Origin: a virus
DNA length: 55,242 bases
Virus record (IMG/VR): IMGVR_UViG_3300047160_036265
Reading direction: 5' to 3' (one strand)
In this document: positions 16,009 to 39,017 of the stretch, one piece after another
Layout: each line of letters opens with the position of its first letter
Position numbering within the stretch: position 1 is the stretch's first letter
Program-made: the position numbers and the translations under genes
The notes under the pieces: model-generated
What the model was told of the DNA's origin: nothing
Databases searched by the model: none
The model's input: the letters and a program-made list of their open reading frames with translations, nothing else

Positions 16009-16671
16009 TCATTCCCCATATTGTTCCCATTCTTGGCCCCAGCGCTTTTTCAATTCTGCGATGTAGGCGTCGGTTTTTATTTTCCGCATCCACAGCTTGT
16101 GGCCGGTGCCGCCCTTGCACACCACGCCCTCGAACACCGGGTAGCGGCCTTCGCGCACATCACGAATAAACTTCTCGGTGAGCGTCCCTTCATAAATAAC
16201 CGACGAAACGGGCAGGTGTCCGAAAGATTTCAGAAATTCCCAGGCATCCACCAGGCCCTTGCGGTGCAGGTTGACATCAATAAGCACCACGTCCTTCGGG
16301 TCATTATGCTCGGCCTGGATGACCATGTGCTTGGGATCATGCTGACCGCTGAAGGAGTTGGGGCCGAAGAATTCACAATAGGCGATGCCGTCCGTGATCT
16401 TAGGGTACTTGTCCCGGAGGACTTTCGCAACCTGTTCCCCATATTTTTCTTGGAAGAGGCCCACGGCGCAGCCATATTCCGGGTCAGCGGCGTCAAAGGT
16501 ACGGCGGCGGGTGCCGCAGAGCCACCAGCCCTTCTTCTTATTCCACTCGAAGCGCAGGTTGGACCCGTCGTATTTGTAAAAAGCAATACAGGGCTGCCCC
16601 AGGGGCGGCTTGACCCTCGCTCCGTCGATACTCCAGTATTCCTTCATGTGCAACCACCACTCGGCCTTCAC
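16009..16671 (-). CDS. Rnl2-family RNA ligase-like nucleotidyltransferase (220 aa)
   Basis: Motif I KYDGSN (KxDG), motif III CEFFG, motif IV EGVVCKG, motif V KIK. ATGA-coupled to the upstream small ORF. Confidence 0.65.
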   Translation of the reverse strand: MKAEWWLHMKEYWSIDGARVKPPLGQPCIAFYKYDGSNLRFEWNKKKGWWLCGTRRRTFDAADPEYGCAVGLFQEKYGEQVAKVLRDKYPKITDGIAYCEFFGPNSFSGQHDPKHMVIQAEHNDPKDVVLIDVNLHRKGLVDAWEFLKSFGHLPVSSVIYEGTLTEKFIRDVREGRYPVFEGVVCKGGTGHKLWMRKIKTDAYIAELKKRWGQEWEQYGE

Positions 16672-21110: not shown

Positions 21111-22127
21111 TCAGTTCACGTTGAGTTTGTCGCAAAAACGCTCGGCCACGTCAAATACCACGTCAAACTCTTTGAGTCCGTCCACGAGGTTGCGGGGAAA
21201 TATCGAGCTTCCGTGCAGAGCGCCCAGAAGACCCGCCAGCATCGACCCGTTACTGTCCGTGTCGCCGCCCGCCGATACCACGTCGTACAGCGACTCGATG
21301 CTAAGCGGGTTTCGCACGAAGAACATATAGGTGAAGGGCAGGGAGTCGTAGATGTAGCAACTGCCCTTCAAGTCGGTGACGATCTTGCCGGCGTCGTATT
21401 CCTCGTACTGGTAGAGCAACTTCATGCGGGCGTGCAGGTCGTCGTCGCCCTCATCGGCGCTTTTCTTGAATCGCTTGTCCTTGCCCATCAGGGCGGCACC
21501 GACCACGCAGTTGATAAAGGAGTCCACCCGAAAGTCGGCGGGGTCGCTGGTCAGGCATTTGAAAATTGCGAATGCCTGGCACAACCCACTTTGGACTGCC
21601 ATGCGGGCGTTATGGGTCATGCGGGTGTAGTTTTCAATGTCCTGCACGCTCTGACCCCAGGCCGGCTCCTCGCACTGCGGGTTGGTGATCGCCATGTATG
21701 CGCCTAGGGGCGCAATCTTCATGGGGATACCGTTGCCGGTGCCACGTTTGGGTTCCTTGGTCTTGCCGGAAGTGGTCCAGGGTACGCCTTGGGCCAGGCG
21801 AGCCACGGCCTCCTTGGTGGTCTTGCCCCAGCCCCGGACGCTCTTCTTATATTCCTCGACGTGCCAGGCAGCGATGGCATTCAGGTCCAGGCAGCCTGTC
21901 TGAATGATACCCTCGGCGGTAGCCTTGGTCAACTGCCAGTCATCGGTGGTGGTGCCCCGATGGTCGTCATCGAAATACTTGTGGCTGGAGCAGTCGAGGT
22001 AGTCGGTGATGCGCCCGTAGCGCTTCTGAATGCCCTCCAGGGTGTTGCTCTCGGTGGGCTTGCCCAGAGCATCGCCAATAGCAATGCCCAGGAACATGCC
22101 AGTAATACGGTCACGAGTAATCGTCAT
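21111..22127 (-). CDS. ADP-ribosylglycohydrolase (ARH/DraG family)
   Basis: N-terminal RDRITGMFLGIAIGDALGKPTE and C-terminal GGDTDSNGSMLAGLLGALHG, the ARH family Mg-binding signatures. Confidence 0.8.
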   Translation of the reverse strand: MTITRDRITGMFLGIAIGDALGKPTESNTLEGIQKRYGRITDYLDCSSHKYFDDDHRGTTTDDWQLTKATAEGIIQTGCLDLNAIAAWHVEEYKKSVRGWGKTTKEAVARLAQGVPWTTSGKTKEPKRGTGNGIPMKIAPLGAYMAITNPQCEEPAWGQSVQDIENYTRMTHNARMAVQSGLCQAFAIFKCLTSDPADFRVDSFINCVVGAALMGKDKRFKKSADEGDDDLHARMKLLYQYEEYDAGKIVTDLKGSCYIYDSLPFTYMFFVRNPLSIESLYDVVSAGGDTDSNGSMLAGLLGALHGSSIFPRNLVDGLKEFDVVFDVAERFCDKLNVN

Positions 22128-22617
22128 GCGGTTCTCCGGCCTTCAATTTGCGGACGGTTTCTTCCAGTTTGGCGATCTGGACACTTTGCCGCATCGTCTT
22201 GGCTTCCAATTGCCGGCGGCTTACCTGCGCACACCTATCTTCTGTCGTTTCGAGGGAGATGTCAACCATATCACGGGCGGAAAGCGTCTTCCGCCAGCCA
22301 TCCAGTTTGGCGGCGTATTCCTCCTGGCCCGCCTCGCACAACTTCTTCCACTCGAAGTCAAGAAAGGCATCCACCTTGTCAATGATGTATTCCCGGCAGT
22401 CCTTGAGCTTCTTGTCGTATTCCTCGTACAGATCAACTTCCAGTTGCTCTGTCTTTTTCCGTTCGGCCAGAAGCATCTGGTATGCTTCCTCGTAGCCCTC
22501 TTCGAGCGCCTGCTCCATTTCCTTTTTGACGGCCTCCAGCTTGCCCTTGTACTCTTCCTCCAACTCGGCCCGGACCTCGGCCTTTAATTCGGCCCGGCCT
22601 ATCCAGAAGTTTTCCAT
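22111..22617 (-). CDS. coiled-coil protein (about 168 aa)
   Basis: Internal ATG (MENFWIG...) with AAAGGA Shine-Dalgarno. Confidence 0.5.
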   Translation of the reverse strand: MENFWIGRAELKAEVRAELEEEYKGKLEAVKKEMEQALEEGYEEAYQMLLAERKKTEQLEVDLYEEYDKKLKDCREYIIDKVDAFLDFEWKKLCEAGQEEYAAKLDGWRKTLSARDMVDISLETTEDRCAQVSRRQLEAKTMRQSVQIAKLEETVRKLKAGEPHDDYS

Positions 22618-22657
22618 TGCGAAATCCTTTCTTAAATTGCGGGCGTCCTGCCATATT

Positions 22658-24073
22658 CTAACCAGTTTTCTCCGGCAACGGAAGGGTGACAATAAATTCG
22701 CTGCCCTCCCCCAACTTGCTGGTGACGGTAATGGTGCCGCTATGGGCCTCCACAATAGAGCGGACCAAGCTCAGACCGATACCCATACCGCTACCATTTT
22801 GGGTATCAACGATTTTGTGAGCCTGCACGAACAAGTCAAAAATATGGGGCAGGATGTCTTCGGGGATGCCGGGGCCGTTGTCTGTGACCTTGATCTCAAT
22901 GATGGCCTTGATGACCTGGACGGTAAGGCTTATAAGACTGCCGCTAGGTGCAAATTTAAGGGCGTTGCCGATCAAGTTAAAAAACACCTGCTGCCAGCGG
23001 GTGGGGTCGGCATAGATGAGCAAGGGTTCTGCCGGGATGCGCACCTTGAGAATTTGATTTTTCTTTTCGGCGGTAATATAAAGCGTTTCCAGCGCGTTGC
23101 GAACGGCGTGTTGCAGGATCATATCCTGCTTGTGAATCGGCAAGCGGCCCGTGGTGATCCGGGATACGTCGAGCAGGTCATCTACCAGGCGGGTGAGATG
23201 GACGGCTTGCCGCTCAATAATATCCAGGTGCCTCTGAGTGTCGATACCTTTTCGCAGAACCGGCAGCGAAGTGAAAATCGGCGCAAGCGGGTTCCGCAGT
23301 TCGTGGCTCAGCATGGCGATGTACTCGTCCTTGCGATTGTCCTCTGTGCGCAGTTTTTCTTCGGCCTGCTTGCGCTTGGTGATCTCCTCGGAGAACATGA
23401 TGATGCCGCCGATCTCGTCCACCGAACAGTACCAGGGACGCTTTTCCCAGCGCAGCCAGTGGACCATGCCGTTGGGGCGCTCAATATAGTCCTCGTCGCT
23501 GGAGACAGTTTCACCGCCCAGCGCCTTATAAATCGCCGTCTTCCAGCGTTCGGGGATTTCCGGGAATACGTCAAAGTGCCGTCTGCCGATAAGCGAGCGG
23601 CCAGCCTCGCGCTCGGCTGGAAAGAAGTCAACGAGCCAGCGGCGACTAACCGCCACATAGCGCAACTCAGTATCCAAGATGGCGATGGCGGACGGCGAGT
23701 GTTCGATGAGGAGGTTCAGAGTAGTGCGCAGGCGGTTGTAGTCAGTGATGTCATTGTTGACTTCGACAACTTGTACGGACTCGCCCTTGGTGTAAAGGGC
23801 CTGATGGCTGGCAACGGTGAGCCGGCGTCCGTCCTTGCGGGTGTGGATAAGTTCCCCGCTCCACCTGCCGTCGCGCAGAATAGTGGCGGCAATATCCTCG
23901 GCGGGAAGGGCGTGGAAGATCGTTTTGAGGAGTGAATGACTGATCTGGCCAACCGCCTCCTCCTTGGTGAAGCCGTACAGCAGGGCCGCTCCGGCGGACC
24001 AAAACTGGATACGACCGTCGATGTCTCGAATTAACACGTTAGCCACATCGAGAACATCACTCACCGATTTCAT
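22658..24073 (-). CDS. PAS-domain sensor histidine kinase (471 aa)
   Basis: Two PAS-like segments, the HisKA H-box SHELRNPL, and HATPase N/G boxes (NLIGNALKF, DNGPGI, GSGMGIGL). Confidence 0.8.
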   Translation of the reverse strand: MKSVSDVLDVANVLIRDIDGRIQFWSAGAALLYGFTKEEAVGQISHSLLKTIFHALPAEDIAATILRDGRWSGELIHTRKDGRRLTVASHQALYTKGESVQVVEVNNDITDYNRLRTTLNLLIEHSPSAIAILDTELRYVAVSRRWLVDFFPAEREAGRSLIGRRHFDVFPEIPERWKTAIYKALGGETVSSDEDYIERPNGMVHWLRWEKRPWYCSVDEIGGIIMFSEEITKRKQAEEKLRTEDNRKDEYIAMLSHELRNPLAPIFTSLPVLRKGIDTQRHLDIIERQAVHLTRLVDDLLDVSRITTGRLPIHKQDMILQHAVRNALETLYITAEKKNQILKVRIPAEPLLIYADPTRWQQVFFNLIGNALKFAPSGSLISLTVQVIKAIIEIKVTDNGPGIPEDILPHIFDLFVQAHKIVDTQNGSGMGIGLSLVRSIVEAHSGTITVTSKLGEGSEFIVTLPLPEKTG

Positions 24074-24134
24074 AATGCCCTCGATTCAGGCGCATTAGGG
24101 TGCTTCGGCCACTATGCCTCCCACGTTCCGTTCC

Positions 24135-24704
24135 TCAGATCGCGCCAAGACACTTGTACATGAACAGCACGGGCCAGGTCTTGGCGGAAAACTTGTTGCG
24201 GCTCTCGCACAGGGAACAAACCCCGGCGTAATCCAGCAGGTGGACTTCGATTTCCTCCGTAGCCTCGTTGCCGTCATGGTTGACGGTGCCTTCGCACTCG
24301 CAGAATACCAATACTACAGACTCGTCGGAAAGTCCAGCAGAAGATATGAGAGATGGACTGATTTTGATAATTCCGGTGAGGGTCAGGCCCGTTTCTTCCT
24401 TCAGTTCGCGCTTGGCATCCTGCACAGCATCGGCCTCGCACAGCCCGGCAGGGAAAGCGTACTCATAGTCGTTGAGGGGAATGCGAAACTCACGGAGGAC
24501 CACAAGGCGGCGTTGGCCCTGCTCGTTGACGTGGATGGGTACGATGATAACGGCATCGGGCTTGAGTTGCCCAGAGCCGTTGGCGGGTTCTTTTTTGCGC
24601 GAGGCGAAAATCCAGTCGCCTTCTTTATTGCGGTTCTTCCAGTGGACGGAGAACAAATTGAGCCAGCGGAAGTCGGTGAGCTTCTTAGGGGGAGTCACGT
24701 CCAT
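24135..24704 (-). CDS. Nudix hydrolase (ADP-ribose pyrophosphatase-like; 189 aa)
   Basis: Nudix box ...GLCEADAVQDAKRELKEETGL (REx2EExGL). AGGAGG Shine-Dalgarno. Confidence 0.75.
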   Translation of the reverse strand: MDVTPPKKLTDFRWLNLFSVHWKNRNKEGDWIFASRKKEPANGSGQLKPDAVIIVPIHVNEQGQRRLVVLREFRIPLNDYEYAFPAGLCEADAVQDAKRELKEETGLTLTGIIKISPSLISSAGLSDESVVLVFCECEGTVNHDGNEATEEIEVHLLDYAGVCSLCESRNKFSAKTWPVLFMYKCLGAI

Positions 24705-24933
24705 CGCCGCCTCCTACGAATTTGAAATTGATGCCGTTCTCTTCCATCAGGACGATGGTGGAGAGATAAATGAAGTCATCAGAATCAACGCCGCAGACAC
24801 CCACCATGAGGCCCAGGTGAATGTCTTCGTCGCTTGTTTTCAGAAGACCGATGGCATCAAGCGCCGCCCGGCGAGCGGATCGACGCTTGATGCGGACGTT
24901 GAAATCGCCGCTGGAGACTATAAATTCGGGCAT
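24685..24933 (-). CDS. hypothetical protein (82 aa)
   Basis: Internal ATG (MPEFIVSS...) with GGGAGGGGG Shine-Dalgarno. Confidence 0.45.
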   Translation of the reverse strand: MPEFIVSSGDFNVRIKRRSARRAALDAIGLLKTSDEDIHLGLMVGVCGVDSDDFIYLSTIVLMEENGINFKFVGGGDGRDSP

Positions 24934-24964
24934 CGCCCCCTCCCTGAAAATAAGACTTCCGGTG

Positions 24965-26050
24965 TCAGCCGTCCACATCCATGTCGGCAAATAGCCGGTT
25001 GGGGTACTTGACCTTGTACCCCTCCAGCAGACGGGCCTTGATCCCCTCGGTTACGTCCTTCTTGTCGAAGGCCGTCATGAGCGACCCGAAAATCTGGGGA
25101 TATTCGGCCTTGGCAAGCCAGGCATAATCCTTGCGCAGTTTTTCGGGGCCTGGATCGCCTACGGACGCTACCTCCATTATAGCAGCAGCCACCTTTAACA
25201 CACGGCTGGTTTCGTGCAGAAGGTCAAGCTGCGCCTCGGTATAGATTTCCTTCAGTTTCGCCTGGTGACGATCTGGTGCCTTGGCGATCAGGTCGTCCAT
25301 CAACCCGTCAAAGACGACTTCATAAAGCCGGTAGGCCGGACGCATGAGCGCATCAACAGCCTTGTGTCGCTCCAGATACCAGTTGCACTTCGCCTTGACC
25401 CACAGGCCATTTTCCAGAACGACGACGTAGCCTTCAAATTCCTCCCGCTCCAGGTGATCGAAGAGATCAGCGAACGCGAAGTCATAGCGGATCGCGCTGT
25501 CGGGGTAGGTTGGGCAGTGGTCGTAGTCTCCGGTGGCACGGCAACGGGAATGCAGGTACACCAGACGAGAGCGTGGGTATTCTACGACAATTTGGTTGTG
25601 GGGGGCCACAAACTCAAAGATCGGAGTATAACCTCGCCGTACCTCCTTAACAATGTCGTCCACCATACCCAATTTCCGTGCCAAACGCAACGCCTCCTGG
25701 GCCTGTGGCGTGTCGCAAGACATCCTGGTGGACGCACGCAGGTCGCCCTTCCATTCAAAGAAATGGATCATCGACCCGTCCAGCTTCTCGTACACCTTTC
25801 CATTCAGGTGGCAGAGCTTGTGGTACTGCGTCTCGTCCGTCTGGCCGACGTTGAAAAACTTGTGCAGGGGCAGGGAGACAATTTGCTCGGTGGCCTCGTC
25901 AAAGGTGATGCCCCGGAATTCCCGCCGAATGCCGTCGAACGACCCAGGAATCTGGATGAGGTAGTTTACGCAAACCAGGCCGTCGTACCGCTTTACGAGG
26001 AATTCCTCACGGCCTTCGAGGGCGACCAGGGCTTCGGAGAGGGTGAACAT
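24965..26050 (-). CDS. T4 RnlA-like RNA ligase 1 (about 361 aa)
   Basis: FRGITFDE...PLHKFFN, VYEKLDGSM (KxDG motif I) and TPIFEFVAPHNQIVVEY, collinear with T4 Rnl1. Starts at MFTLSE immediately downstream of P5. The -10 lies 6 nt from the ATG, so the mRNA looks leaderless. Confidence 0.8.
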   Translation of the reverse strand: MFTLSEALVALEGREEFLVKRYDGLVCVNYLIQIPGSFDGIRREFRGITFDEATEQIVSLPLHKFFNVGQTDETQYHKLCHLNGKVYEKLDGSMIHFFEWKGDLRASTRMSCDTPQAQEALRLARKLGMVDDIVKEVRRGYTPIFEFVAPHNQIVVEYPRSRLVYLHSRCRATGDYDHCPTYPDSAIRYDFAFADLFDHLEREEFEGYVVVLENGLWVKAKCNWYLERHKAVDALMRPAYRLYEVVFDGLMDDLIAKAPDRHQAKLKEIYTEAQLDLLHETSRVLKVAAAIMEVASVGDPGPEKLRKDYAWLAKAEYPQIFGSLMTAFDKKDVTEGIKARLLEGYKVKYPNRLFADMDVDG

Positions 26051-26056
26051 TTTGGT

Positions 26057-26086
26057 ATTGTACAGCCGGAACGAGGCGGTTGTAAA
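26057..26086 (-). promoter_or_regulatory. promoter P5 (leaderless rnlA-like transcript)
   Basis: TTTACAACC + 18 nt + TACAAT. The predicted start site coincides with the A of the ATG. Confidence 0.6.
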
Positions 26087-26283
26087 ACTGTGCGGTGCCG
26101 GATTCCCGATTCTCCACCGGCATCTCCGGGTGCCGGGACCGTGCATCCCGGCCCATTGTGGCTTTGCTCCCCGGCGTGTTAATTTGTGGATCGTGTCTAG
26201 CAGCCGAGTGGTCAAGTCGGCCTCTTTTTACACCAACCGCACAATTTTTGTTTTACAACCCATATATAGGAGAGGAGGGATTC

Positions 26284-26376
26284 ATGCACCCGCAAAGGAT
26301 TTGCAACCACAACATTATCGCATCGGAGGCGGTAAATATCAAGGCCATGTCACAGTTTGGCAGCCTGTTCTTCTAA
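26284..26376 (+). CDS. possible small ORF (30 aa) on the plus strand
   Basis: Near-perfect Shine-Dalgarno AGGAGAGGAGGG 5 nt before the ATG. Preceded by a plus-oriented TTTACAAC. Convergently overlaps the 3' end of the gene at 26350-27237 by 27 nt. Confidence 0.25.
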   Translation: MHPQRICNHNIIASEAVNIKAMSQFGSLFF

Positions 26377-27237
26377 TGCGGCTCTCACTCGTGTGGCGTC
26401 GGCCTTTCCTCCTAGCTCTCTTAAAACCGGGCCGATGAGCGAGTTGAGAGCCTGCTTTTTACCCTTCTTGTAGTCTTCAACCACCTTGGGTGATGCCGCC
26501 AGGTACTTCGCCACGGTGGTCGCAACTACGTCCTCCTGGGCAACACTAAGGATGTCCAACGCAAAGATTGCTGTCAAGGCATCAACGCCGTCCCAGCAAT
26601 AAGGAAACACATCCTTTACCTGCTTGGCGGACAGCACCCCCTTCAGTCGCAGGAACAGCAAGCTAGTTATATCATCAGCCAGCCACGGCAGATAGTCCAG
26701 CACGTCGGCTAATGTGAATTTGGTCTGCTCCAGCTTGGCCTGCAACTCGTTAGTCAGGAAATTAAAAACGAGCTTGCACCAGTCGGTCCACTCGGAAGGT
26801 GGCGCAGGCGGCGGTTTGTACCGGGGCATGTAGCCTTCATTCGGTATTTCCACCCACTCAATATCAGGCCAGTTCCGCTTTTTCTTGAGGCGAAGCCACC
26901 TTTCCAAACTCCCCTGCCCCAACAACCGCCAGCTAAAGCGGCGACTTTGTGGGGGATGTTGAAGCGTTTGCCGCCCCTCAACCTTTTTGCGCTCCGGGGC
27001 TTGGAGATCGGGCACAGTGATAAACATATGCCAATCTGGCACGCTTGCCTCTGCTGGCTTTCCCTGCATCTCGTAATACGGGAACTTCATCAGCCAGTAG
27101 ACTGCCTGACCCAGCTTATCGGTGGACCGCTCCCAATATTCCCGCTCGGCCTCCAGCCAAAAAGAAACGCCGTCTCCCGGTGGGGAGCCGGCGTTTTGCC
27201 ATTTGAAGTAGGCCCGCAGCCTAATGTCGTCAAGCAT
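26350..27237 (-). CDS. DUF2934-like N-terminus fused to a GatB/YqeY-domain C-terminus (about 295 aa)
   Basis: N-terminal IRLRAYFKW...WLEAEREYW. C-terminal VAKYLAASPKVVEDYKKGKKQALNSLIGPVLRELGGKADATRVRAALEEQ resembles the GatB C-terminal/YqeY domain. ATG with GAGGAAGG Shine-Dalgarno. Confidence 0.55.
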   Translation of the reverse strand: MLDDIRLRAYFKWQNAGSPPGDGVSFWLEAEREYWERSTDKLGQAVYWLMKFPYYEMQGKPAEASVPDWHMFITVPDLQAPERKKVEGRQTLQHPPQSRRFSWRLLGQGSLERWLRLKKKRNWPDIEWVEIPNEGYMPRYKPPPAPPSEWTDWCKLVFNFLTNELQAKLEQTKFTLADVLDYLPWLADDITSLLFLRLKGVLSAKQVKDVFPYCWDGVDALTAIFALDILSVAQEDVVATTVAKYLAASPKVVEDYKKGKKQALNSLIGPVLRELGGKADATRVRAALEEQAAKL

Positions 27238-27430
27238 CGGCCTTCCTCGTAATTTCAAATTTCAGCGTGGTGAGATCATAGCCCCGTGCCTGAAGCTCTT
27301 GGCATTGCGCTTCGCTCAAGATGTCGGCCAGGAGCCGGCGATCTGGACCATTGGGGCCGTCGAATAGCAACTGCTTGCCCTTGTGGCGCTCGCCCCGCAG
27401 GTAGCCGTAATAGGCACGGAGCTTCTTCAC
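27230..27430 (-). CDS. hypothetical protein (66 aa)
   Basis: ATGA-coupled to the upstream gene. Confidence 0.45.
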   Translation of the reverse strand: MKKLRAYYGYLRGERHKGKQLLFDGPNGPDRRLLADILSEAQCQELQARGYDLTTLKFEITRKADA

Positions 27431-28422
27431 AGGATCACCAGGCCCCTTTCCAGGCTCACGATGACCTTCTTGACCGTGAAGGTGTGGCGGAACTCCTTCT
27501 TCTTGTGGCTGGTGCGCTCGACCTTATTCCAGCGGTCGCATACTTCCTGTGCGAAAGCTTCATTGTGGTACACCGCCAAGCCGCTATTGGAGTATCCAAT
27601 CTCCCCCTTCTCGTCCACCAGGCCAAAACCTGGAACCGGCAGGGACAGTTCAGAAAGCCTGTGGTAGAGAGTGCGTACCACCGGCCACAAGTCGATGAGG
27701 GCCTTCTCCCGGTTGGCGCAGTCCTGCACCCGCCGGTCCATGATGGGGTGGTCCGGGTCGCCCGTTCGCAAGTTAAAACAGGCCCAGGTGTAGGCGTTGG
27801 CGTAGGAGGCCAACGCTTCCAACACCTTATGAGGGTTGTCCAGGTCCACGGTATCGTGGTGCGTGCCCAGGCCGTAGCGCAGGTGCTTCTTGGTTTTCTC
27901 GTAGAGGGCCACCAGGCGACTCAGCGGGTGTTCCGGGGGGTATTGCTCGCAGCCGTGGCCCTTGACCAATTCGGCGGCTTCGGCCAGGTGATCGGAGGAA
28001 ATCTCGTGATCCTCCCGAATCACATCCATGAGAATATCACGGATGCGACTGATATTTGCACAGCAGATAGTCAGATATTCCCCCTCCTTGTTGAGCAGAT
28101 CGGCCCACTCCTCGGCGGTGAAGTCCAGCTTGAGGGAGGAAAGCTTCTTGGGCTGGTTGTGGTCGGCAGTGACGGTGACGCCTTTCTTGCGCCACTTCCA
28201 CTCGGTTTCCTCGCCTTCGTCATCCCGCTGGCGCAGCTTGATGAGCCGCTGAATGTTGGCCTCGCGTTCCTCGCCCTTGAGACGTTTCATATGGGGCGGG
28301 CCGTTGGCATAGGCCATGACCCCATTGATAAGCTCCTGGCGATAGTTCTCCGGGAGAACGCCATCACGCTTGAGTTTGCGGGCACACAACTCATCGGCCC
28401 AGGTATGGTCGCGCTGCTTCAT
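27427..28422 (-). CDS. hypothetical protein (331 aa)
   Basis: ATG with GAGGAA Shine-Dalgarno. ATGA-coupled. Confidence 0.55.
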   Translation of the reverse strand: MKQRDHTWADELCARKLKRDGVLPENYRQELINGVMAYANGPPHMKRLKGEEREANIQRLIKLRQRDDEGEETEWKWRKKGVTVTADHNQPKKLSSLKLDFTAEEWADLLNKEGEYLTICCANISRIRDILMDVIREDHEISSDHLAEAAELVKGHGCEQYPPEHPLSRLVALYEKTKKHLRYGLGTHHDTVDLDNPHKVLEALASYANAYTWACFNLRTGDPDHPIMDRRVQDCANREKALIDLWPVVRTLYHRLSELSLPVPGFGLVDEKGEIGYSNSGLAVYHNEAFAQEVCDRWNKVERTSHKKKEFRHTFTVKKVIVSLERGLVIL

Positions 28423-28664
28423 GGCAGTTCCTCGATGGTGATGCGGATGCGCTTTCCTTCGATCTGGCGGGCTTCCACATGCTGGCCCGTCTCGTCCCAG
28501 CTTTGGACACGGACGAACATGCCGGCCTGGGCGTCGGCGGGCGGGGGCGGCACTTCATCGTAGATGGTGGCGATAAGGGCCTTGCCCCCGTCCTCGGACT
28601 TGAAGGTTTTGTTGTCATCCGGGAAGTCGTGGGCGCAGATACCTTCAAAAACCTTCCTGAACAT
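28419..28664 (-). CDS. hypothetical protein (81 aa)
   Basis: Internal ATG (MFRKVFEG...) with AAAGGAG Shine-Dalgarno, directly after a terminator. Confidence 0.45.
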   Translation of the reverse strand: MFRKVFEGICAHDFPDDNKTFKSEDGGKALIATIYDEVPPPPADAQAGMFVRVQSWDETGQHVEARQIEGKRIRITIEELP

Positions 28665-28679
28665 GGCCAACTCCTTTGG

Positions 28680-28723
28680 AAAACAAAAAGGGCTGCCGGG
28701 CGGCAGAACCACACCGGCAGCCC
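28680..28723 (-). terminator. intrinsic terminator
   Basis: 10-bp stem GGGCTGCCGG/CCGGCAGCCC with a 14-nt loop, followed by TTTTTGTTTT on the minus strand. Downstream of the Mpa/ARC gene. Confidence 0.65.
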
Positions 28724-28750
28724 ATCGGGGGATGGTGCATCCAAGGACTG

Positions 28751-30424
28751 TCAGGCCGCAGTCGGGCGCAGCTTCTCGACCTTCACGCCGCACTTCTCGA
28801 TGCCCTTGGCATCCATGAAGTCTTCGATGTCGAAATCAGCGTTCTTGGCGATGTTGTGCAGATAGGTCGTCTGCACCGCAGCCCGGAAGTCATCGACACG
28901 GACGAAGGTGCCTTTGCCGGACTTCGAGGCCATGTCGCGCTTCATGGCGGCGGACGTGGCGATGTCAATGATGCCGGCGATCATGGCCCCGGTGAGGCAA
29001 TCGCCCAGCGTCAAGTAATGTTCCTTGCCGCCGCCGTCCACGAGCTTGTACAGCACGCGCTCCTGGGAGAAAATCTCGGCGGTAGTGTGGGCAGCGATCT
29101 CGGCCAAATCCGCCGGGCCGGTCGGAATGCCCCGCAGGTGAATGCGGAAATATTCAATGGCCGTGCGGGTCGTGGGCCGACCGATGCGCACCATGCGGTC
29201 GATCCGGCCTTCCCGAACCACGGCGGGGTCGATGCGCTGTTGCTGGTTGGTGGCGAGCATCACCATGACCTTGGAGGTTTCCAGGCCGTCCATTTCCGAC
29301 AGGAACATCGGAACGATGGTGTTCTCCACGTCGCTCGACTTGCCGGTGCCCCGTTTCGGCAGGATGGCATCGGCCTCGTCCACAAAGAGGAGGGCGGGGT
29401 ATCCGTGTTTGCCGTGGTGTTCACGGCCACGCTCGAACAACTCCCGGATCATCTGCTCCGACTGGCCGACCCACTTGCTCAGCAACTCCGGCCCCTTGAC
29501 GTAGATGAAGCCGGACTGCATCTGCGGCTTCTCGTGAATCTTGGCGATGCTGTTCGCCGCCGCCTTGGCGCAGAGGGTTTTGCCGCAGCCCGGAGGGCCA
29601 TACAACAGGACGCCCTTGGGCGGCTTCTTGTTGTAGTGCTTGTAGAGTTCCGGGAACTGGTAGGGCCGTTCGATAGCCTCCACCAACTGCTCCTTGGCCT
29701 CGCGCAACCCGGCGATTTCATCCCAGGTCGTCTGGGACTCCTCGACCAGATTGAAGCGGTCCTGGCCGTCGCGCTCCAACAGGCGGACCACCACGGTATC
29801 GGAGGGGTCCAGCACCACCCGGTCGCCCGGCTTGAGCGTTGTGTTGGGCAGGCCGTGCAAGACCTGGCGGGGCCGACCATCCACGTCCACTTCGGCGTGG
29901 TCCTTGTCGATGAGGCGGGCAACGGCGCAGATCGTACCACCGCCGCTCGTCTCGGACTTCTCGTGGATTTGATAGGTCTGCAAATCGACCTTCACCACGT
30001 CGGACGGGAAGAACTTCTTGCCCGGAACGCCGTGAACTTCGTAGCGCTGGCCGTTGAAGACGATCACGCAGTTGGTGCCGTCGTCCTTGCCCAGCAGTTT
30101 GACCTGAACCGGCGCGTCCTTCAGGCCGATGGAAAACTTCTGGATGGCTCCGTTCGGCAGGCCCAGGGTGACGTTGCCCTCCTTATCGACGCCCTTGGAA
30201 GCGATCTTGCCGTAGCGTGGGCGTTTCTCTTGCTTGCGCCACTCCCTGTCAATAATGAGCATCAAGTCGCCTTGCTCAAAGGCGTCCAACTTGAACTCGT
30301 TATTGGCGCTGACCACGGTGGCATAGACCAGCGGGGCAGACAGGAGGCGGGCGACGAAGCACTCGTACTCCAGAATGGTGCCTTTGGCCTCTTCCAGCAA
30401 CGCCATCAATTCTTCTTCGTTCAT
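28751..30424 (-). CDS. Mpa/ARC-type proteasome-associated AAA+ ATPase homologue (557 aa)
   Basis: PKGVLLYGPPGCGKTLCAKAAANSIAK, VKGPELLSKWVGQSE, RGTGKSSDVENTIVP and IDPAVVREGRID are near-identical to mycobacterial Mpa blocks. Coiled-coil plus OB-like N-terminus. The C-terminus ends ...LRPTAA and lacks the GQYL docking motif. Confidence 0.8.
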   Translation of the reverse strand: MNEEELMALLEEAKGTILEYECFVARLLSAPLVYATVVSANNEFKLDAFEQGDLMLIIDREWRKQEKRPRYGKIASKGVDKEGNVTLGLPNGAIQKFSIGLKDAPVQVKLLGKDDGTNCVIVFNGQRYEVHGVPGKKFFPSDVVKVDLQTYQIHEKSETSGGGTICAVARLIDKDHAEVDVDGRPRQVLHGLPNTTLKPGDRVVLDPSDTVVVRLLERDGQDRFNLVEESQTTWDEIAGLREAKEQLVEAIERPYQFPELYKHYNKKPPKGVLLYGPPGCGKTLCAKAAANSIAKIHEKPQMQSGFIYVKGPELLSKWVGQSEQMIRELFERGREHHGKHGYPALLFVDEADAILPKRGTGKSSDVENTIVPMFLSEMDGLETSKVMVMLATNQQQRIDPAVVREGRIDRMVRIGRPTTRTAIEYFRIHLRGIPTGPADLAEIAAHTTAEIFSQERVLYKLVDGGGKEHYLTLGDCLTGAMIAGIIDIATSAAMKRDMASKSGKGTFVRVDDFRAAVQTTYLHNIAKNADFDIEDFMDAKGIEKCGVKVEKLRPTAA

Positions 30425-30483
30425 GGAAAGTCCTCGCGTCCGTTCAGGGGTTAGGGGATGCCTCTCGTCCTGCTCGTTCCGGT

Positions 30484-31212
30484 TCAGTCAGCCTGGACCA
30501 GCACTTCGCCAGCCGAGTCAGCGAAAGTATAGCCGCTGCTGGGCGAGGCGATGGTGCCAAGCGGTGTCTTGGTGATACGGACGTTGTTGTTCTCGTCCAC
30601 CGTGTATTTGGCGAGGGGCTTGCCGCCCCCGCTGGTGGGCTTCTGGACCGCCAGGGTCTTGCCGTCCTTGGTCCAGACGAACACGGTGTCCTTGGGCTTG
30701 AAGCCACAGGCCCGCAGATGCTTGGCCGGGATGCAGACCGTGCCACGGGCGTCGGGCTTGCGGCAGCCATTCGGCTTGCCCGTCCCGACCGCCAGTTGCG
30801 GCAGGCTGGAGGGCGGGGCCAGGCTGGCGCTGCTGGTGCCGTCGTCATCGTCCACGTTGGGGTCGGCCTTCCCCTGGGCGTAGAAGCTCCCCACGGCCTT
30901 GCCAACCGCCGCCGGGTTCGACACGGCGGGTCTGGGCTGCGAGGGGTTGTAACTCGTCGGATCGTCGGTGTAGCGGTGGTACAAGAAGGCCGGAACCGGC
31001 GCACCCTGAATCGGGATCAAGGTGCGGGTATAATCCGACCCCATGAGGCCACGACCATAGTAGTCATGGACCACCTGCTTCATGTTGTTGTGCCGCTCCC
31101 GGTGGCCCCGGTTGCGGACTTCCTTGGTCACGTCGTAGGCCGTGAACATCTCCCCGGCCTGAACCTTGTCGTTGACCACTGCTTCGATTACAGTCTGAAG
31201 GGCTGCGTCCAT
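30484..31212 (-). CDS. hypothetical protein with two AbrB/SpoVT-like swapped-hairpin segments (242 aa)
   Basis: RGTVCIPAKHLRACGFKPKDTVFVWTKDGKTLAV and a second, similar repeat. ATG with AAAGGAA Shine-Dalgarno, downstream of P7. Confidence 0.45.
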   Translation of the reverse strand: MDAALQTVIEAVVNDKVQAGEMFTAYDVTKEVRNRGHRERHNNMKQVVHDYYGRGLMGSDYTRTLIPIQGAPVPAFLYHRYTDDPTSYNPSQPRPAVSNPAAVGKAVGSFYAQGKADPNVDDDDGTSSASLAPPSSLPQLAVGTGKPNGCRKPDARGTVCIPAKHLRACGFKPKDTVFVWTKDGKTLAVQKPTSGGGKPLAKYTVDENNNVRITKTPLGTIASPSSGYTFADSAGEVLVQAD

Positions 31213-31241
31213 CGTTGTTCCTTTCCAGTCGTTGATGTTTC

Positions 31242-31270
31242 ACTGTACCGCCGCTGACCCCGGTTGTAAA
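31242..31270 (-). promoter_or_regulatory. promoter P7
   Basis: TTTACAACC + 17 nt + TACAGT. Confidence 0.55.
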
Positions 31271-31276
31271 GCACAT

Positions 31277-31570
31277 TTATTCGTCCAGGCTCCGGTATCT
31301 CGGAACCCCCTGGGGGTATTTCTCCTTTAGCTGCCGTTCAAATATCACCTGCTCAATGGCGTTCTGCACGTCCTGCCGCCACTCGCAATTACACTCCTCC
31401 GGGAAATGGATAGTGTGTAATATGCGAGAGCCATAAAATTCGCCACCATCGGCGTGTCGTTTGCACAAGTGCTGAACTGCCCAGAACAATATATCCTGGG
31501 CATCGTCAGTGGACCGGGCCGGTACATCATACGGCCCGGTCCACCGGAAGCTTTTCTCCATTGTCGCCAT
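31277..31570 (-). CDS. hypothetical protein (about 97 aa)
   Basis: Internal ATG (MATMEKSF...). No clear Shine-Dalgarno. Confidence 0.4.
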   Translation of the reverse strand: MATMEKSFRWTGPYDVPARSTDDAQDILFWAVQHLCKRHADGGEFYGSRILHTIHFPEECNCEWRQDVQNAIEQVIFERQLKEKYPQGVPRYRSLDE

Positions 31571-31599
31571 TTCATAGGCGACATAGCAGAAGCGCACGA

Positions 31600-33225
31600 T
31601 CACGCCGCAAATTCCACGAGGTAGCGAAGCTCGAACTGCTCCCGGCTGAAGATGATCCACTCGTTGTTCATGACCTGGGAGTGACCGCCCTTGCCGAAGA
31701 CGCAGTGATGCCCAGCCGGCGGCGAGGTATAACCCCGTGGGCCGGGGGCGACGTGCGGACGGCCCAGGGCCACGTCACCAGCGAACATGAAAGCTTCACG
31801 GCCCCGAACGGAACCACCGCCGGACGACCAGTAGCTTCCACGCAGGGACGTGTAGCCGGCGGACTTTTTCCAGTCGTCCGCCCAATACAATCCCGGCCCG
31901 AACATGGCCCCGGTGATGACCACGCCGACCAACTGGTGCGGCAGGCGCAGGTTTTCACGGAGGATGCCGGTGACGTTCACGGAACGGGTTCCGTGGAACA
32001 AGAGGCCGGTGTTGCTCTCCCGGAAGCGGCGGATGTCGTTGTTATCTTGCAAATCCGCCCGCTCGGCAGGCTGGAACAGGGGCCGCTCGTGAATCGTGGG
32101 CCGGCTGGCGACGATCTTTTCCTGGCTGCCGACCAGCTTGGCCCGGTCGCCGGTGCGCTCGACTCGCCACGCATTCTTGATGCGCATGGCACCGACGCCT
32201 CCGTGACGGTTGGCGGTGGCACGAGGCCACCAGCCATAGAGCCACTTGCCCAGGTCGGTCTTCGGGTCGATCCACTCCATCCACACCGGCATCCCGCCGA
32301 AGGGGTCGTGCTGGTGGGACACGTCATCGACGGCAGCGGCAACACCCAGAGCCGCCTCGAACGCATCCAGGTCGGCCTGCCACAGCAGAATATTGCTGGT
32401 ATTGAGAATCCACTCCTGGGGCGGGCAGTGGAGCCGCTTTTTCTTCGGGATGCGACCGTACATGAGCGCCGTCAGGTGGTTCAAGTCGGCATCGGCCACC
32501 TGATCGTCCACGTTGTCACCCACGACGATGAGGCGCTTCTGGGCTTCGGTGAGGAAGTCACGGGCCTCATCAATCGCCGCCTGAGTGGGGATCGAGTCGT
32601 CGGCCATGCTGCCACGGGTATATTGCACCGTGGCCACGTTCAGGTCACGCAGCAGAGAATGGGTCTGGCTGTCCACCGGACGGCCCGCCGCCTTGATGAC
32701 CTTCTTCTTGGCGCTCTTCTTGTCGTCGGGCTTATCATCCGGTTTGGAATCGGGCTTCTTGGGAGCGCCTTCGCTGTGTTTGATGGTACGGGCATCCGGC
32801 AGGCCGGTGCTACGGGTGGCCATGCTGCGGACGAGGTAGCAGTCCTTGCCGGCACGGGCACGCAACACCCGCTTGCTGGCGACCGTAACCCACTCGCCCC
32901 GCTTGTCGTTCTTGTCGTGCAACTGGCTGGCGAACTCCCGCTGGGCGTCCGACTCACTGGAGCAAACCACGAACTGGAAGTTGGGGTTCTTGGCCCCGGT
33001 GCGCCCCCACTCGAAGTACACAGCCCACTGGCCGCTCGTCTTATGCTTGACGATGGCCCCGTGGTAATACTTGTTGGAGTCCTTGCCGTCCTGCGTGAAG
33101 CAGCCCATGTCTGCGATCTTGCAGTTGTCGAAATCGCCGTCCGTAGTGGCGGGCGGGCCGAAGCACTGCCAGTCGTTCGGGCCGGACCCGTTAGGGTAGG
33201 TGTTCTTTTCGATCTTCGATCCCAT
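31600..33225 (-). CDS. PARP-like ADP-ribosyltransferase (WGR domain plus H-Y-E catalytic domain; about 541 aa)
   Basis: N-terminal WAVYFEWGRTG (WGR). C-terminal LLFHGTRSVNVTGIL, GPGLYWADDWKKSAGY and NEWIIFSREQFELRYLVEF, matching the PARP H-G-S/T, Y and catalytic-E blocks. ATG with GGAGA Shine-Dalgarno, downstream of P8. Confidence 0.8.
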   Translation of the reverse strand: MGSKIEKNTYPNGSGPNDWQCFGPPATTDGDFDNCKIADMGCFTQDGKDSNKYYHGAIVKHKTSGQWAVYFEWGRTGAKNPNFQFVVCSSESDAQREFASQLHDKNDKRGEWVTVASKRVLRARAGKDCYLVRSMATRSTGLPDARTIKHSEGAPKKPDSKPDDKPDDKKSAKKKVIKAAGRPVDSQTHSLLRDLNVATVQYTRGSMADDSIPTQAAIDEARDFLTEAQKRLIVVGDNVDDQVADADLNHLTALMYGRIPKKKRLHCPPQEWILNTSNILLWQADLDAFEAALGVAAAVDDVSHQHDPFGGMPVWMEWIDPKTDLGKWLYGWWPRATANRHGGVGAMRIKNAWRVERTGDRAKLVGSQEKIVASRPTIHERPLFQPAERADLQDNNDIRRFRESNTGLLFHGTRSVNVTGILRENLRLPHQLVGVVITGAMFGPGLYWADDWKKSAGYTSLRGSYWSSGGGSVRGREAFMFAGDVALGRPHVAPGPRGYTSPPAGHHCVFGKGGHSQVMNNEWIIFSREQFELRYLVEFAA

Positions 33226-33261
33226 GACTTTCTCCAAGGGGTGTTGAGGATTCTGGTTATG

Positions 33262-33290
33262 ATATTACATCGGCAACGGGCAGTTGTAAA
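33262..33290 (-). promoter_or_regulatory. promoter P8 (PARP-like gene)
   Basis: TTTACAACT + 17 nt + TAATAT. Confidence 0.6.
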
Positions 33291-35709: not shown

Positions 35710-35922
35710 CTAGTTGACATTCCCCGATTCTACGTCGGGATTCTTCGGTTGTAAAGCATCATTGACGTGCGGCTCACACCAACAGCCGTGGATGCGGATG
35801 CCTCCGCAGTTACAACAATATTGGTTGAGGAAGCCCCGGATGAATTCGAGTCGGTCTTCGGGGCGGAAGTGCTTCTGCCGTTCCAGAAACTCATCGTAAA
35901 GCTGCTTGGCTGACTCCAGCAT
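35710..35922 (-). CDS. Cys-rich small protein (70 aa)
   Basis: CCNCGGIRIHGCWCEPH motif. ATG with GGAGGGG Shine-Dalgarno. Confidence 0.5.
   Translation of the reverse strand: MLESAKQLYDEFLERQKHFRPEDRLEFIRGFLNQYCCNCGGIRIHGCWCEPHVNDALQPKNPDVESGNVN
35727..35755 (-). promoter_or_regulatory. promoter P9 (inside the 3' end of the upstream gene)
   Basis: TTTACAACC + 17 nt + TAGAAT. Confidence 0.55.
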
Positions 35923-36562
35923 GATCCCCTCCGATCTGGTTCGGGACTATGGCCTGTTCCATCCAGTGAACGGAAGTCTGGACGTGGTTGGGGCGAACAT
36001 ATTTGGCGACGTGACGGGCGAAATCTCCATAAGCGAAGCCCTGGCAGGTCCGCACCACATAACCCTCGCAGGTATCGCCAAAGCAAGACCGGCGGGGCCA
36101 GAGCGATTTGATGGCCTTTTCGTCCCAGATGCCTCGGTACAGTACAGGAACGGTAGGAATGTCAAAAAGTCCAGCCCACTCCACCGTCTCATCCCAGGCC
36201 AGGCAGCCGTTGCTGCCATCATATACGCCGATCAGGTAAAAATACGCTGTGAGCCGGTCGTAGAAAATGCTGTGCTTGGCGTAGACGTTTTCGCCGCAAA
36301 GCCGCCAGCCCTCCGGGATGTTGTGTCGGATCGAGGCGTGGAACTGCTTGAGGAGATTGCGAGACGGGTGGTTCTTGGAGTTGAGGGACCGGGCGTGGTA
36401 GTGGATGCAATACATGGACGTGCATTCACCGTCCATTTTTTCCGTCACCACAACCTCTTGGCCTGCAAAATGATCCACGTCGGCCAGAACCTTGTCGTCC
36501 CGGTCGGATTTCTCGCTCCAGGGCAGGTGCGGTGTTCGGGGATATTTGTACAGGCCGTTCAT
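35891..36562 (-). CDS. RNA ligase family protein (PF09414-like; 223 aa)
   Basis: N-terminal YKYPRTPHL, motif I EKMDGE (KxDG), motif III GENVYAKH, motif IV EGYVVR, motif V KYVRP. Confidence 0.7.
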   Translation of the reverse strand: MNGLYKYPRTPHLPWSEKSDRDDKVLADVDHFAGQEVVVTEKMDGECTSMYCIHYHARSLNSKNHPSRNLLKQFHASIRHNIPEGWRLCGENVYAKHSIFYDRLTAYFYLIGVYDGSNGCLAWDETVEWAGLFDIPTVPVLYRGIWDEKAIKSLWPRRSCFGDTCEGYVVRTCQGFAYGDFARHVAKYVRPNHVQTSVHWMEQAIVPNQIGGDHAGVSQAALR

Positions 36563-38787: not shown

Positions 38788-39017
38788 TTGATAAGGTCCA
38801 ATAGAAATTCGGGGCTGTAGAGGGAAACCTCAAACCCCTTGCCTGTCAGTTCCATGAGCAGAATGCGGAGGTTCTGCGCCCGCTGCGGGCTGTCCTTCAT
38901 GATTTGCCGCACAAGCACCTTGGCTTCCTCGTCTACTTCTTGTTCCGAGAAGTAGGGGCCGTGCTTGGTGCAGGCGAAGGTTTCGACCAGGACGATCCAG
39001 TATTCTTTGAGTTTCAT
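38784..39017 (-). CDS. hypothetical protein (77 aa)
   Basis: ATGA-coupled. Confidence 0.45.
   Translation of the reverse strand: MKLKEYWIVLVETFACTKHGPYFSEQEVDEEAKVLVRQIMKDSPQRAQNLRILLMELTGKGFEVSLYSPEFLLDLIK

Follow-up and report, generated by a model that had tools for sequence, protein, structure and literature searches.

A PARP-type ADP-ribosyltransferase of presumed huge phages, its probable partners and its relatives beside planctomycete type XIII retrons

Can a virus of bacteria encode PARP-type ADP-ribosylation as a cycle, with one enzyme that writes the mark, another that erases it and others that recycle the product? The question is raised by IMGVR_UViG_3300047160_036265, an IMG/VR virus record of 55,242 nucleotides (nt) that was analysed at full length and is called the window below. 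A first-pass annotation had proposed such a cycle for it. PARP-type signalling is central to the biology of DNA damage in eukaryotes. To our knowledge, its prokaryotic and viral roots are poorly understood, and bacterial PARPs have almost no known physiology. Every gene named in the first pass was found where it had been placed, on the minus strand. We argue that the PARP and the ADP-ribosylglycohydrolase (ARH) probably work together with a third protein, which carries a winged helix-turn-helix (wHTH) and an AbrB-like domain. The three genes are as follows.

31600-33225, minus strand: PARP1/2/3-type ADP-ribosyltransferase, 541 amino acids (aa) from ATG (Pfam, alignment, AlphaFold model, Foldseek)
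30484-31212, minus strand: hyp242, a 242-aa protein with wHTH, acidic/proline linker and AbrB/SpoVT-like domain (model, synteny, alignment)
21111-22127, minus strand: ADP-ribosylglycohydrolase of the ARH/DraG/MJ1187 type (Pfam, motifs, PDB relatives, synteny)

The first gene was described as a PARP-like writer with a WGR domain, and both domains score above the curated Pfam cut-offs: PARP (PF00644) reaches 67.5 bits against a cut-off of 26.7 (E = 1.5e-18), and WGR (PF05406) reaches 37.4 bits against 22 (E = 2.7e-9). The start at ATG 33225 is supported by a GGAGA ribosome-binding site upstream and agrees with the homologue consensus MGTKL. The open reading frame (ORF) that begins with TTG spans 31600-33237 (545 aa), and numbering from the ATG is 4 lower. 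The expected catalytic triad is in place, as H415, Y451 and E526 of the TTG ORF (H411, Y447 and E522 from the ATG) align to H-Y-E of PARP1 and PARP2. The triad is invariant in 59 homologues and in 44 of 44 full-length phage and bacterial sequences, where the neighbouring K, S and Y are invariant as well. The W and the R of the WGR motif are kept in 40 and 41 of 45 sequences, respectively.

The AlphaFold model of the protein (pLDDT 83.5, pTM 0.78), which the first pass had suggested as a check, has WGR, helical and ADP-ribosyltransferase (ART) domains. The WGR domain occupies residues 23-136, a disordered Lys/Asp-rich linker 157-182, the helical domain 190-309 and the ART domain 318-545. The top Foldseek matches are WGR-helical-catalytic chains of PARP1 and PARP2 on DNA breaks (E = 9e-21; TM 0.69 to 4dqy_C). 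More than 750 homologues of 520-550 aa share about 60-65% identity with the window PARP, many of them on contigs of 340-673 kb. Thus a full WGR-helical-ART PARP appears to be conserved across a whole group of phages of 350-670 kb.

Is the window itself a piece of such a phage? No virion or packaging hallmark gene was found in its 55 kb by PHROGs and PDB sequence searches that included the large unknown ORFs; for 237-1343, 3252-4262, 9558-11639, 50855-52075 and other large unknown ORFs these searches were uninformative. Since there is no hallmark gene, we call the locus phage-borne because of its synteny with contigs deposited as huge phages, which seems a reasonable basis. Protein by protein, the window is collinear with LR756511.1 (595 kb, an “uncultured phage”) and with IMG/VR contigs of 340-570 kb. 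The common order is Prs .. M50 protease - ClpX - metallophosphatase - sigma-70 - (HD_4) - hyp270 - (small ligase) - PARP, continued by hyp242 - (AAA+) - (Rnl1 - Nudix) - ARH - hyp176/hyp308. An ARH with 100% identity is recorded from a contig of 669,797 bp, and we infer that the window belongs to a huge-phage genome of roughly 670 kb. All convincing genes but one are on the minus strand, with third-codon GC of 0.7-0.9. Megablast of a 12-kb region against GenBank phages gave no match. The compared loci carry L-numbers: L001-L007, L026, L127, L141 and L142 are the group of the window, L008-L016 are a sister clade, and L111 is an example from Planctomycetota. AT-rich loci were searched through all ORFs.

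The third gene had been called an eraser, and its match to Pfam ADP_ribosyl_GH (PF03747) is strong (1.2e-49, 170 bits). The binuclear metal-site motifs GDALG, TDD and GGDTD are intact, and they are invariant in seven orthologues. The scores are below the NCBIfam equivalog cut-offs (58 versus 337 for DraG, 35 versus 490 for Tri1). The gene starts before the upstream ORF has ended, with an overlap of 17 nt.

Do the writer and the eraser belong together? In at least 12 huge-phage contigs (the window, L001-L006, L026, L127, L141, L142 and a 420-kb contig), PARP and ARH are encoded on one strand in a constant order, with 2-9.5 kb between them, and the order persists down to 55% identity of PARP and 39-49% identity of ARH. 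In L026, the four genes PARP, hyp242, AAA+ and ARH lie within 5.3 kb, and hyp242 begins before PARP has ended. When the comparison starts from ARH, a WGR-PARP is found upstream in all three sampled homologues (42-49% identity). Among 50,697 GenBank phage records, a PARP-like sequence occurs in nine and this type of ARH in seven, with both only in LR756511.1; because both are rare and yet meet in this relative of the window, their clustering is not readily explained by chance. They are also absent together: LR756504.1 and LR756502.1 carry the clade marker hyp270 and neither PARP nor ARH. One of the PARP-ARH loci, L127 (CALFYV010000090.1, 546 kb, GC 0.38), was deposited in a “Bacteriovoracaceae” metagenome-assembled genome; it has the full huge-phage order ClpX - metallophosphatase - hyp270 - ligase - PARP - hyp242 - ARH - hyp308 and is probably a mis-binned huge phage.

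Between PARP and ARH is hyp242, which follows PARP directly in most close huge-phage relatives (one ligase gene intervenes in L001) and also in L035, a member of a separate PARP cluster. Its AlphaFold2 model (pLDDT 82) has an N-terminal wHTH, a disordered acidic/proline linker and a C-terminal AbrB/SpoVT-like barrel; Foldseek gives weak matches to wHTH regulators, and PF04014 is found in homologues. Judging by gene order, this previously unannotated gene seems to be the tightest partner of PARP. It was missed by the first pass, as were the type XIII retron link and the ligase theme described below and the Mpa-like ATPase gene that comes next.

28751-30424, minus strand: AAA+ ATPase with a proteasomal-ATPase OB domain, Mpa/ARC-like (Pfam, NCBIfam, synteny)

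In at least six genomes, among them L005, L006, L026, L141 and the 420-kb contig, this gene lies in the interval from hyp242 to ARH. Its match to NCBIfam pup_AAA (2.5e-90) is below the cut-off, the actinobacterial Mpa/ARC proteins are the closest, and no proteasome or Pup gene was seen.

Cellular relatives of the phage PARP have a different setting. A scan with the PARP alignment over one genome per prokaryotic species gave 41 loci, almost all in Planctomycetota (Gemmataceae, Pirellulaceae, Planctomycetaceae and Isosphaeraceae), on multi-megabase chromosomes and in the isolate Neorhodopirellula pilleata Pla100. These PARPs are 50-65% identical to that of the window. In the isolate (L111, 2684-12126) the order is ARH (400 aa) - 617 aa - 568 aa - reverse transcriptase (RT, 643 aa) - WGR/PARP - Macro; the last two overlap at the stop of PARP. 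PADLOC assigns the three middle genes to HEAT/ARM_XIII, SWIM_XIII and RT_XIII (E from 1e-154 to 1e-183); by these matches they are a type XIII retron, joined to PARP and two predicted ADP-ribose erasers. RT is present in 32 of 42 bacterial loci, HEAT/ARM and SWIM in 20-22, ARH in 13 and Macro in 11. The cassette occurs in at least 20 planctomycete loci, the isolate genome included (L111; L099/L102, L106-L109, L112-L117, L122-L125, L132, L135). None of the RT, SWIM and HEAT/ARM genes by which a type XIII retron was recognised was found in the window or in the phage loci (the non-coding RNA was not searched for).

The bacterial and phage loci are connected in two further ways. The first 88 residues of the planctomycete type XIII retron RTs share 50% identity with the wHTH of hyp242 (E = 4e-27); this wHTH has tblastn matches in about 25 loci, and these RTs sit directly upstream of PARP. 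Because this wHTH is homologous to the N-terminus of PARP-adjacent RTs, PARP and a hyp242-type wHTH domain seem to travel together in phages and bacteria alike. The bacterial ARH is of another subfamily and only 21% identical to the phage ARH, so that PARP appears to have been paired with an ARH-family hydrolase independently, at least twice, and additionally with Macro. This repeated pairing is the strongest argument for a functional coupling of writer and eraser. The original idea that they belong together is thus supported by gene order, joint absence and the pairing in Planctomycetota; its extension to a tight trio with the Nudix hydrolase is not.

We suggest that the module has a core of PARP, wHTH-AbrB protein and ARH, and an accessory pair of an RNA ligase (Rnl1) and a Nudix hydrolase that is predicted to be co-transcribed with ARH.

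24965-26050, minus strand: T4 RnlA-type RNA ligase, Rnl1 (RNA_lig_T4_1; motif I KLDG; Pfam, PHROG, NCBIfam)
24135-24704, minus strand: Nudix hydrolase, probably of the ADP-sugar/ADP-ribose pyrophosphatase type (Pfam, best solved relatives, synteny)

Our preferred reading, which we hold tentatively and short of probable, is that the module is a reversible ADP-ribosylation switch activated by nucleic-acid ends. Each biochemical step is taken by homology from PARP1/2, HaPARP, ARH enzymes and NUDT5. The WGR domain would bind a nucleic-acid end or nick, and this would relieve the autoinhibition by the helical domain, as in PARP1/2 and the Herpetosiphon PARP. The H-Y-E domain would then use NAD+ to ADP-ribosylate the enzyme itself, nearby DNA-bound proteins or the nucleic-acid end. 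The wHTH-AbrB protein is an obvious candidate for a partner, regulator or target of PARP. ARH would take the mark off and release free ADP-ribose, the NUDT5/NudE-like Nudix hydrolase could convert it to AMP and ribose-5-phosphate, and the neighbouring ligases could seal the breaks.

Several points weigh against this reading. Pfam PARP_reg has no match in the PARP at E<0.01, and the helical domain is seen in the model alone. The H-Y-E triad cannot separate mono- from poly-ADP-ribosylation, and PARP3 is a mono-transferase. The closest solved relatives of the ARH are MJ1187 and DraG, while the PAR/Ser-ADPr hydrolase ARH3 is distant. A consumer of NAD+ that is triggered by DNA breaks would be an odd possession for a phage unless tightly controlled. 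PARP and ARH of the window are 9.5 kb apart in different predicted transcription units, and the 12 contigs that share their order are collinear relatives rather than independent cases, so that the order partly reflects inheritance and not selection. In the sister clade L008-L016 (PARP identity 51-55%) there is no ARH, Nudix or wHTH-AbrB gene within 10 kb, and in five loci with ARH (L021-L025) PARP is missing within the same distance.

In ARH-less lineages with PARP, a NADAR domain, a further ADP-ribose-processing enzyme, is found 5-8 kb from PARP on the same strand. Four of the loci belong to the sister clade, and in these it lies 6-8 kb downstream.

L009:19805-20293, L010:11276-11764, L012:19518-20021 and L014:17884-18381: NADAR
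L044/L047/L048:3940-4503: NADAR in ARH-less phage lineages that carry PARP

By its position, NADAR may be a non-orthologous replacement of the eraser.

The planctomycete cassettes allow a different interpretation, in which the genes form a conflict module related to a retron-PARP defence system and are anti-retron or toxin-antidote-like. In the host, PARP would be the effector of a type XIII retron; once the complex with multicopy single-stranded DNA (msDNA) is disturbed, NAD+ consumption or ADP-ribosylation would kill or arrest the cell, with ARH and Macro as built-in antidotes. In the phage, ARH might erase the marks of the host PARP while the wHTH mimics the RT N-terminus and titrates a partner. 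Alternatively, the phage might control its host or keep other phages out by means of a toxin, PARP, and its antidote, ARH and/or the AbrB protein. The PADLOC matches of the cassette, its presence in so many loci and the resemblance of the hyp242 wHTH to the RT N-terminus all agree with this idea. AbrB/MazE-type domains (PF04014) are typical antitoxin DNA binders, and toxin-immunity pairs of ART with ARH or of ART with Macro are established (Tre1-Tri1, DraT-DraG, DarT-DarG). Canonical type XIII retrons already have a WGR-like domain (PMC7736814). However, a decoy would not be expected to retain all catalytic residues and 60-65% identity in a broad clade, as the phage PARP does, and for anti-defence the phage would need no more than an eraser. 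Type XIII retrons with PARP are not known to have a defence phenotype, and no PADLOC model matches the phage PARP, hyp242 or ARH. In a crude neighbour-joining tree without support values, the planctomycete PARPs are one clade nested inside the phage diversity, which suggests a transfer of PARP from phage to host. We regard an explanation by conflict as decidedly unlikely.

The phage and bacterial loci could also be two forms of one thing, namely a mobile nucleic-acid-sensing ADP-ribosylation switch made of PARP, wHTH and ADP-ribosyl hydrolase and common to huge phages and Planctomycetota, with the bacterial PARP as a retron effector. Then msDNA may be the ligand of WGR, with ARH and Macro as antidotes, and the phage version may be the ancestor of the effector or a counter-measure to it. 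We think this is unlikely. If true, it would tie PARP-type DNA-break signalling, commonly regarded as eukaryotic, to the conflict between phages and bacteria, give type XIII retrons a mechanism and make PARP a new kind of retron effector.

Whether the genes act together also depends on how they are transcribed, and here a recurrent promoter-like motif is informative.

33262-33290, minus strand: promoter-like site TTTACA-N17-TAATAT upstream of PARP (motif copy)
31242-31270, minus strand: promoter-like site TTTACA-N17-TACAGT upstream of the wHTH-AbrB gene (motif copy)
22658-24073, minus strand: PAS-PAS histidine kinase between Nudix and ARH (Pfam)

The promoter that had been ascribed to PARP (33290-33262) is one of 14 minus-strand copies of the motif TTTACA(AC)-N16-18-(G)TAnnnT, against 0.13 expected by shuffling and none on the plus strand (e.g., at 53810, 49403, 41151, 33290, 31270, 26086, 20740, 12290, 2379 and 2230). 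The motif precedes PARP, hyp242, Rnl1, hyp308, sigma, ClpX and tRNA genes. It is conserved and strand-specific in L001-L007 and absent in L008-L014 and L026. The phage's own sigma-70-like factor (40126-41091) lies behind one copy. Intrinsic terminators are useless for delimiting operons, since 14 were found where 14.4 were expected. With the motif copies as starts, PARP is predicted to be a unit alone, followed by the units hyp242 - AAA+ - three small ORFs - DUF2934/YqeY and Rnl1 - 101 aa - Nudix - PAS kinase - coiled-coil ORF - ARH - 109 aa. The motif brackets Rnl1..Nudix..ARH in the window, L005 and L006.

The ligase, Nudix and kinase identities proposed for the last unit hold. Rnl1 is an RnlA-like ligase by RNA_lig_T4_1 and its motif I. 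The ORF listed for it (from TTG 26215) contains a promoter copy (26086-26057) whose -10 hexamer ends 6 nt before ATG 26050; because of this distance, Rnl1 probably starts at ATG 26050 (361 aa) and its mRNA is probably leaderless. The same arrangement of promoter and start is found in L005. The Nudix protein matches Pfam at 1.3e-8 with RELKEETGL intact, and the solved structures closest to it are without exception ADP-sugar/ADP-ribose pyrophosphatases (NUDT5, NudE, Ndx4 and T. thermophilus ADPRase). Its match to the NudE equivalog (6.6e-10, 38.8 bits) is below the cut-off of 169, and the G-to-R stretch of its Nudix box is 2 residues short of canonical. The PAS histidine kinase is confirmed by Pfam (PAS-PAS-HisKA-HATPase); it has no counterpart in L001-L007 and is an insertion specific to the window.

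An RNA-linked role had been suggested from the ligase beside the two hydrolases. Rnl1, Nudix and ARH are indeed in one predicted transcription unit, and this unit exists in a subset of the relatives only. The Nudix gene adjoins ARH or Rnl1 in L004-L006 and the 420-kb contig, with a gap of 3 bp to ARH in L004. It is missing from L001-L003, L026, L127, L141 and L142, all of which retain PARP and ARH. Thus the part of the earlier claim that concerned the co-occurrence of PARP and ARH stands, and the part that included Nudix fails, as the gene is missing in several relatives and PARP belongs to a separate predicted unit.

A unit with Rnl1, Nudix and ARH and without PARP fits a simpler account, by which the region holds two unrelated auxiliary functions: a cassette of Rnl1, Nudix and ARH for both repair and counter-defence, and PARP as something separate. 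Rnl1 would reseal tRNA or RNA cleaved by the host. ARH would strip ADP-ribose that host transferases of the DarT/CmdT/Tre1 type had put on phage or translation components, and Nudix would clear the ADP-ribose from ARH or from host NADases. PARP might, for example, modify host proteins like T4 Alt, ModA and ModB. The surroundings are rich in RNA- and translation-related genes, with three ligases, GatB/YqeY, a HisRS fragment, a suppressor tRNA, HD_4 and CsrA, and the ARH loci L021-L025 show that ARH can do without a nearby PARP. Phage ARG domains were predicted to act on macromolecular ADP-ribose conjugates, and phage ARTs and PARPs on host proteins (PMC9503650, PMC7824862). This account does not explain why ARH stays near PARP in the very loci in which Rnl1 and Nudix are missing (L001-L003, L026, L127, L141, L142), the tight operon-like cluster in L026, the independent pairing of PARP with ARH and Macro in Planctomycetota, and the joint absence of PARP and ARH from two related huge phages. 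We consider it rather unlikely; if the genes are independent after all, the locus is an ordinary, though rich, auxiliary-gene region of a huge phage.

Ligases are also found on the other side of PARP and elsewhere in the window.

35891-36562, minus strand: small nucleotidyltransferase of the Rnl2/DNA-ligase type (PF09414, motif I KMDG; Pfam, synteny, motif)
16009-16671, minus strand: third ligase-like gene (motif I KYDG; weak PHROG RNA-ligase match; conserved in L027)

Together with Rnl1, three window ligases have an intact KxDG motif. The Rnl2-type gene is just upstream of PARP in six loci (L005-L007, L026, L127 and L142), with a distance of at most about 1 kb in L005-L007, L026 and L142, and in L001 an ATP-dependent DNA ligase is directly behind PARP. 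Over 88 loci of viral PARPs, at least five PARP clusters that share less than 50% identity have a ligase for DNA or RNA within 10 kb of PARP, the loci inside each cluster not being independent. In a large T4-like group of PARPs of about 430 aa (L036-L095; 53 IMG/VR loci), a DNA ligase is nearby in 38 of 53 loci and Rnl1 in 23 of 53, at 3-8 kb from PARP. Smaller clusters (L079-L081, L073, L035) have a DNA ligase within 10 kb, which is about 1-1.5 kb downstream of PARP in L073 and L079. The recurrence of ligases near PARP is no more than suggestive. It fits a WGR domain that recognises ligatable ends.

The last component of the proposed cycle was a PRPP (phosphoribosyl pyrophosphate) synthetase.

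53821-54798, minus strand: ribose-phosphate diphosphokinase, Prs (exact called gene; TIGR01251, 228 bits against a cut-off of 113)

The identity and the position of Prs were correct. Its role as the recycling arm is not supported: the gene is about 20 kb and at least five promoters away from PARP, it is coupled to FolD, and no NadV or Namat is nearby. FolD (methylene-THF dehydrogenase/cyclohydrolase) is immediately upstream, with a 4-nt overlap in L143:4590-6472 (the window's own genome or a near-identical one), and Prs also adjoins FolD in L001:8268-10241. From this neighbourhood, FolD and Prs look like a one-carbon/PRPP pair that points to purine nucleotide synthesis. Prs thus appears to support nucleotide synthesis and to stand outside the ADP-ribose module. 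We also considered the NARP1 kinase Adps as an identity for Prs and rejected it, given the passed Prs subfamily cut-off, the coupling to FolD and the lack of a Namat neighbour; the neighbours of Prs are FolD, CsrA and hypothetical genes, with no NAPRTase-type gene within 5.5 kb upstream or in the window.

Prs and Nudix would gain importance if the genes mainly served to balance the NAD+ and ADP-ribose pools of the infected cell. Then Nudix and ARH would degrade ADP-ribose-based immune signals or NADase products, and Prs would regenerate PRPP for NAD+ resynthesis, comparable to NadV/NatV and NARP. In favour of this, the Nudix protein resembles ADP-ribose pyrophosphatases, the identity of Prs as a ribose-phosphate diphosphokinase is secure, and phage NAD+ reconstitution uses a Prs homologue (bioRxiv 10.1101/2024.02.11.579819; PMC12774641). 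However, neither NadV, Namat, NMNAT, Macro nor NADAR was found in the window among Pfam-scanned ORFs or by tblastn, and jackhmmer gave no Macro or NADAR either. Prs is coupled to FolD rather than to an NAD+ enzyme, and a conserved, catalytically intact PARP would be left unexplained. This makes pool management highly improbable.

How does the module compare with known systems? PARP catalytic domains in a few jumbo phages and ARG domains in about 5% of jumbo phages have already been described (PMC7824862, PMC9503650, PMC11662467), as have bacterial WGR-helical-PARP enzymes with PARG erasers (PMC8120803, PMC5966428) and type XIII retrons with a WGR-like HEAT/ARM protein and without PARP (PMC7736814). 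In the searchable literature, which is incomplete, we found no description of PARP in Planctomycetota or in retrons, of the huge-phage PARP - wHTH/AbrB - ARH module or of the planctomycete cassette of retron XIII, PARP, Macro and ARH.

The phage protein resembles eukaryotic PARP1/2/3 in its architecture of WGR, modelled helical and ART domains, in the H-Y-E triad and the K/S/Y residues of the NAD+ site, and in a predicted fold that superposes on PARP1 and PARP2 bound to DNA breaks. The ARH and the NUDT5-like Nudix hydrolase encoded nearby recall the eukaryotic set of PARP1/2/3, PARG/ARH3 and NUDT5, and the ligases of the window echo the logic of PARP, XRCC1 and Lig3. In contrast to the eukaryotic enzymes, the phage PARP has no zinc fingers or BRCT domain and does not match PARP_reg; its ARH is MJ1187/DraG-like and not ARH3-like. 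Neither PARG nor Macro is found among the Pfam-scanned window ORFs, and Macro occurs only in the planctomycete cassette. The module belongs to a bacterial virus, and its wHTH-AbrB partner has no eukaryotic counterpart.

The bacterial PARPs of Herpetosiphon aurantiacus (HaPARP) and Clostridioides difficile CD160 share the minimal WGR-helical-PARP form of about 500 aa. HaPARP is activated by DNA, and its modification is reversed by a co-resident hydrolase (PMC8120803, PMC5966428). Their eraser is PARG/DUF2263, whereas here it is ARH, with Macro in addition in Planctomycetota; the present family consists mostly of huge-phage sequences, and Planctomycetota are outside the six phyla listed in 2018. 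The jumbo-phage PARPs (BBA65562.1 of Xanthomonas phage XacN1; “PARP1” of gut NAD-jumbo phages) have a phage-encoded catalytic domain in common with ours and match only the catalytic 25-38% of the window PARP, at 30-41% identity. Their suggested role is the modification of host proteins or DNA-damage sensing (PMC7824862, PMC11662467), and no linked ARH, wHTH-AbrB partner or retron tie is described for them in the searchable literature.

Type XIII retrons (Mx162, Mx65, Ne144, Sa163) come close through the planctomycete PARP relatives inside RT_XIII, SWIM and HEAT/ARM cassettes; PARP, the wHTH domain and the ARH family are all that the window has in common with them. DraT-DraG, Tre1-Tri1 and DarT-DarG likewise couple a transferase genetically to a reversing ARH or Macro hydrolase; their transferases are R-S-E or DarT-type mono-ARTs without WGR and helical domains. 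T4 Alt/ModA/ModB, NadV/NatV and NARP1/2 are similar in the use of NAD+ by phages for ADP-ribosylation and in phage Nudix and Prs-like enzymes. They differ in the ART clade, and here there is no NadV, Namat or NMNAT and Prs goes with FolD.

At this locus, then, a phage PARP travels with a dedicated, predicted DNA-binding partner and a putative eraser, and its nearest cellular relatives are inside type XIII retron cassettes. The locus opens questions about the activation of prokaryotic and viral PARPs, the substrates of phage ARHs and the effector logic of type XIII retrons. The material for testing is at hand: three or four soluble proteins, and Neorhodopirellula pilleata Pla100 as an isolate with the cellular version.

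The remaining genes of the window are auxiliary. The sole convincing plus-strand gene (53046-53252) encodes a CsrA/RsmA-like RNA-binding protein of 68 aa, which is 81% identical in LR756511.1, with conservation far above that of its neighbours, and has a counterpart near PARP on a contig from Pirellulaceae (L110). We had considered the conserved antisense ORF after Prs as an RNA gene and rejected this, as it is the gene of this CsrA-like protein. On the minus strand are genes for a class-II HisRS-like core fragment (39014-40142), DUF2934 with GatB/YqeY (26350-27258), an HD_4 protein similar to RelA/SpoT hydrolases (37397-38407), a gamma-glutamyl cyclotransferase-like protein (44319-44738) and an AlgH-like protein (1657-2178); in the 420-kb relative, DUF2934 is fused to Rnl1. 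In a search of the whole window, Rfam detected only a tRNA (2264-2337, minus strand, 60 bits). It has the anticodon CUA (amber suppressor; labelled Pyl by ARAGORN) and its own TTTACA-type promoter (2379-2350). The genes of the window decode normally under code 11, and the CUA tRNA hints at stop-codon reassignment or suppression somewhere in the phage programme.

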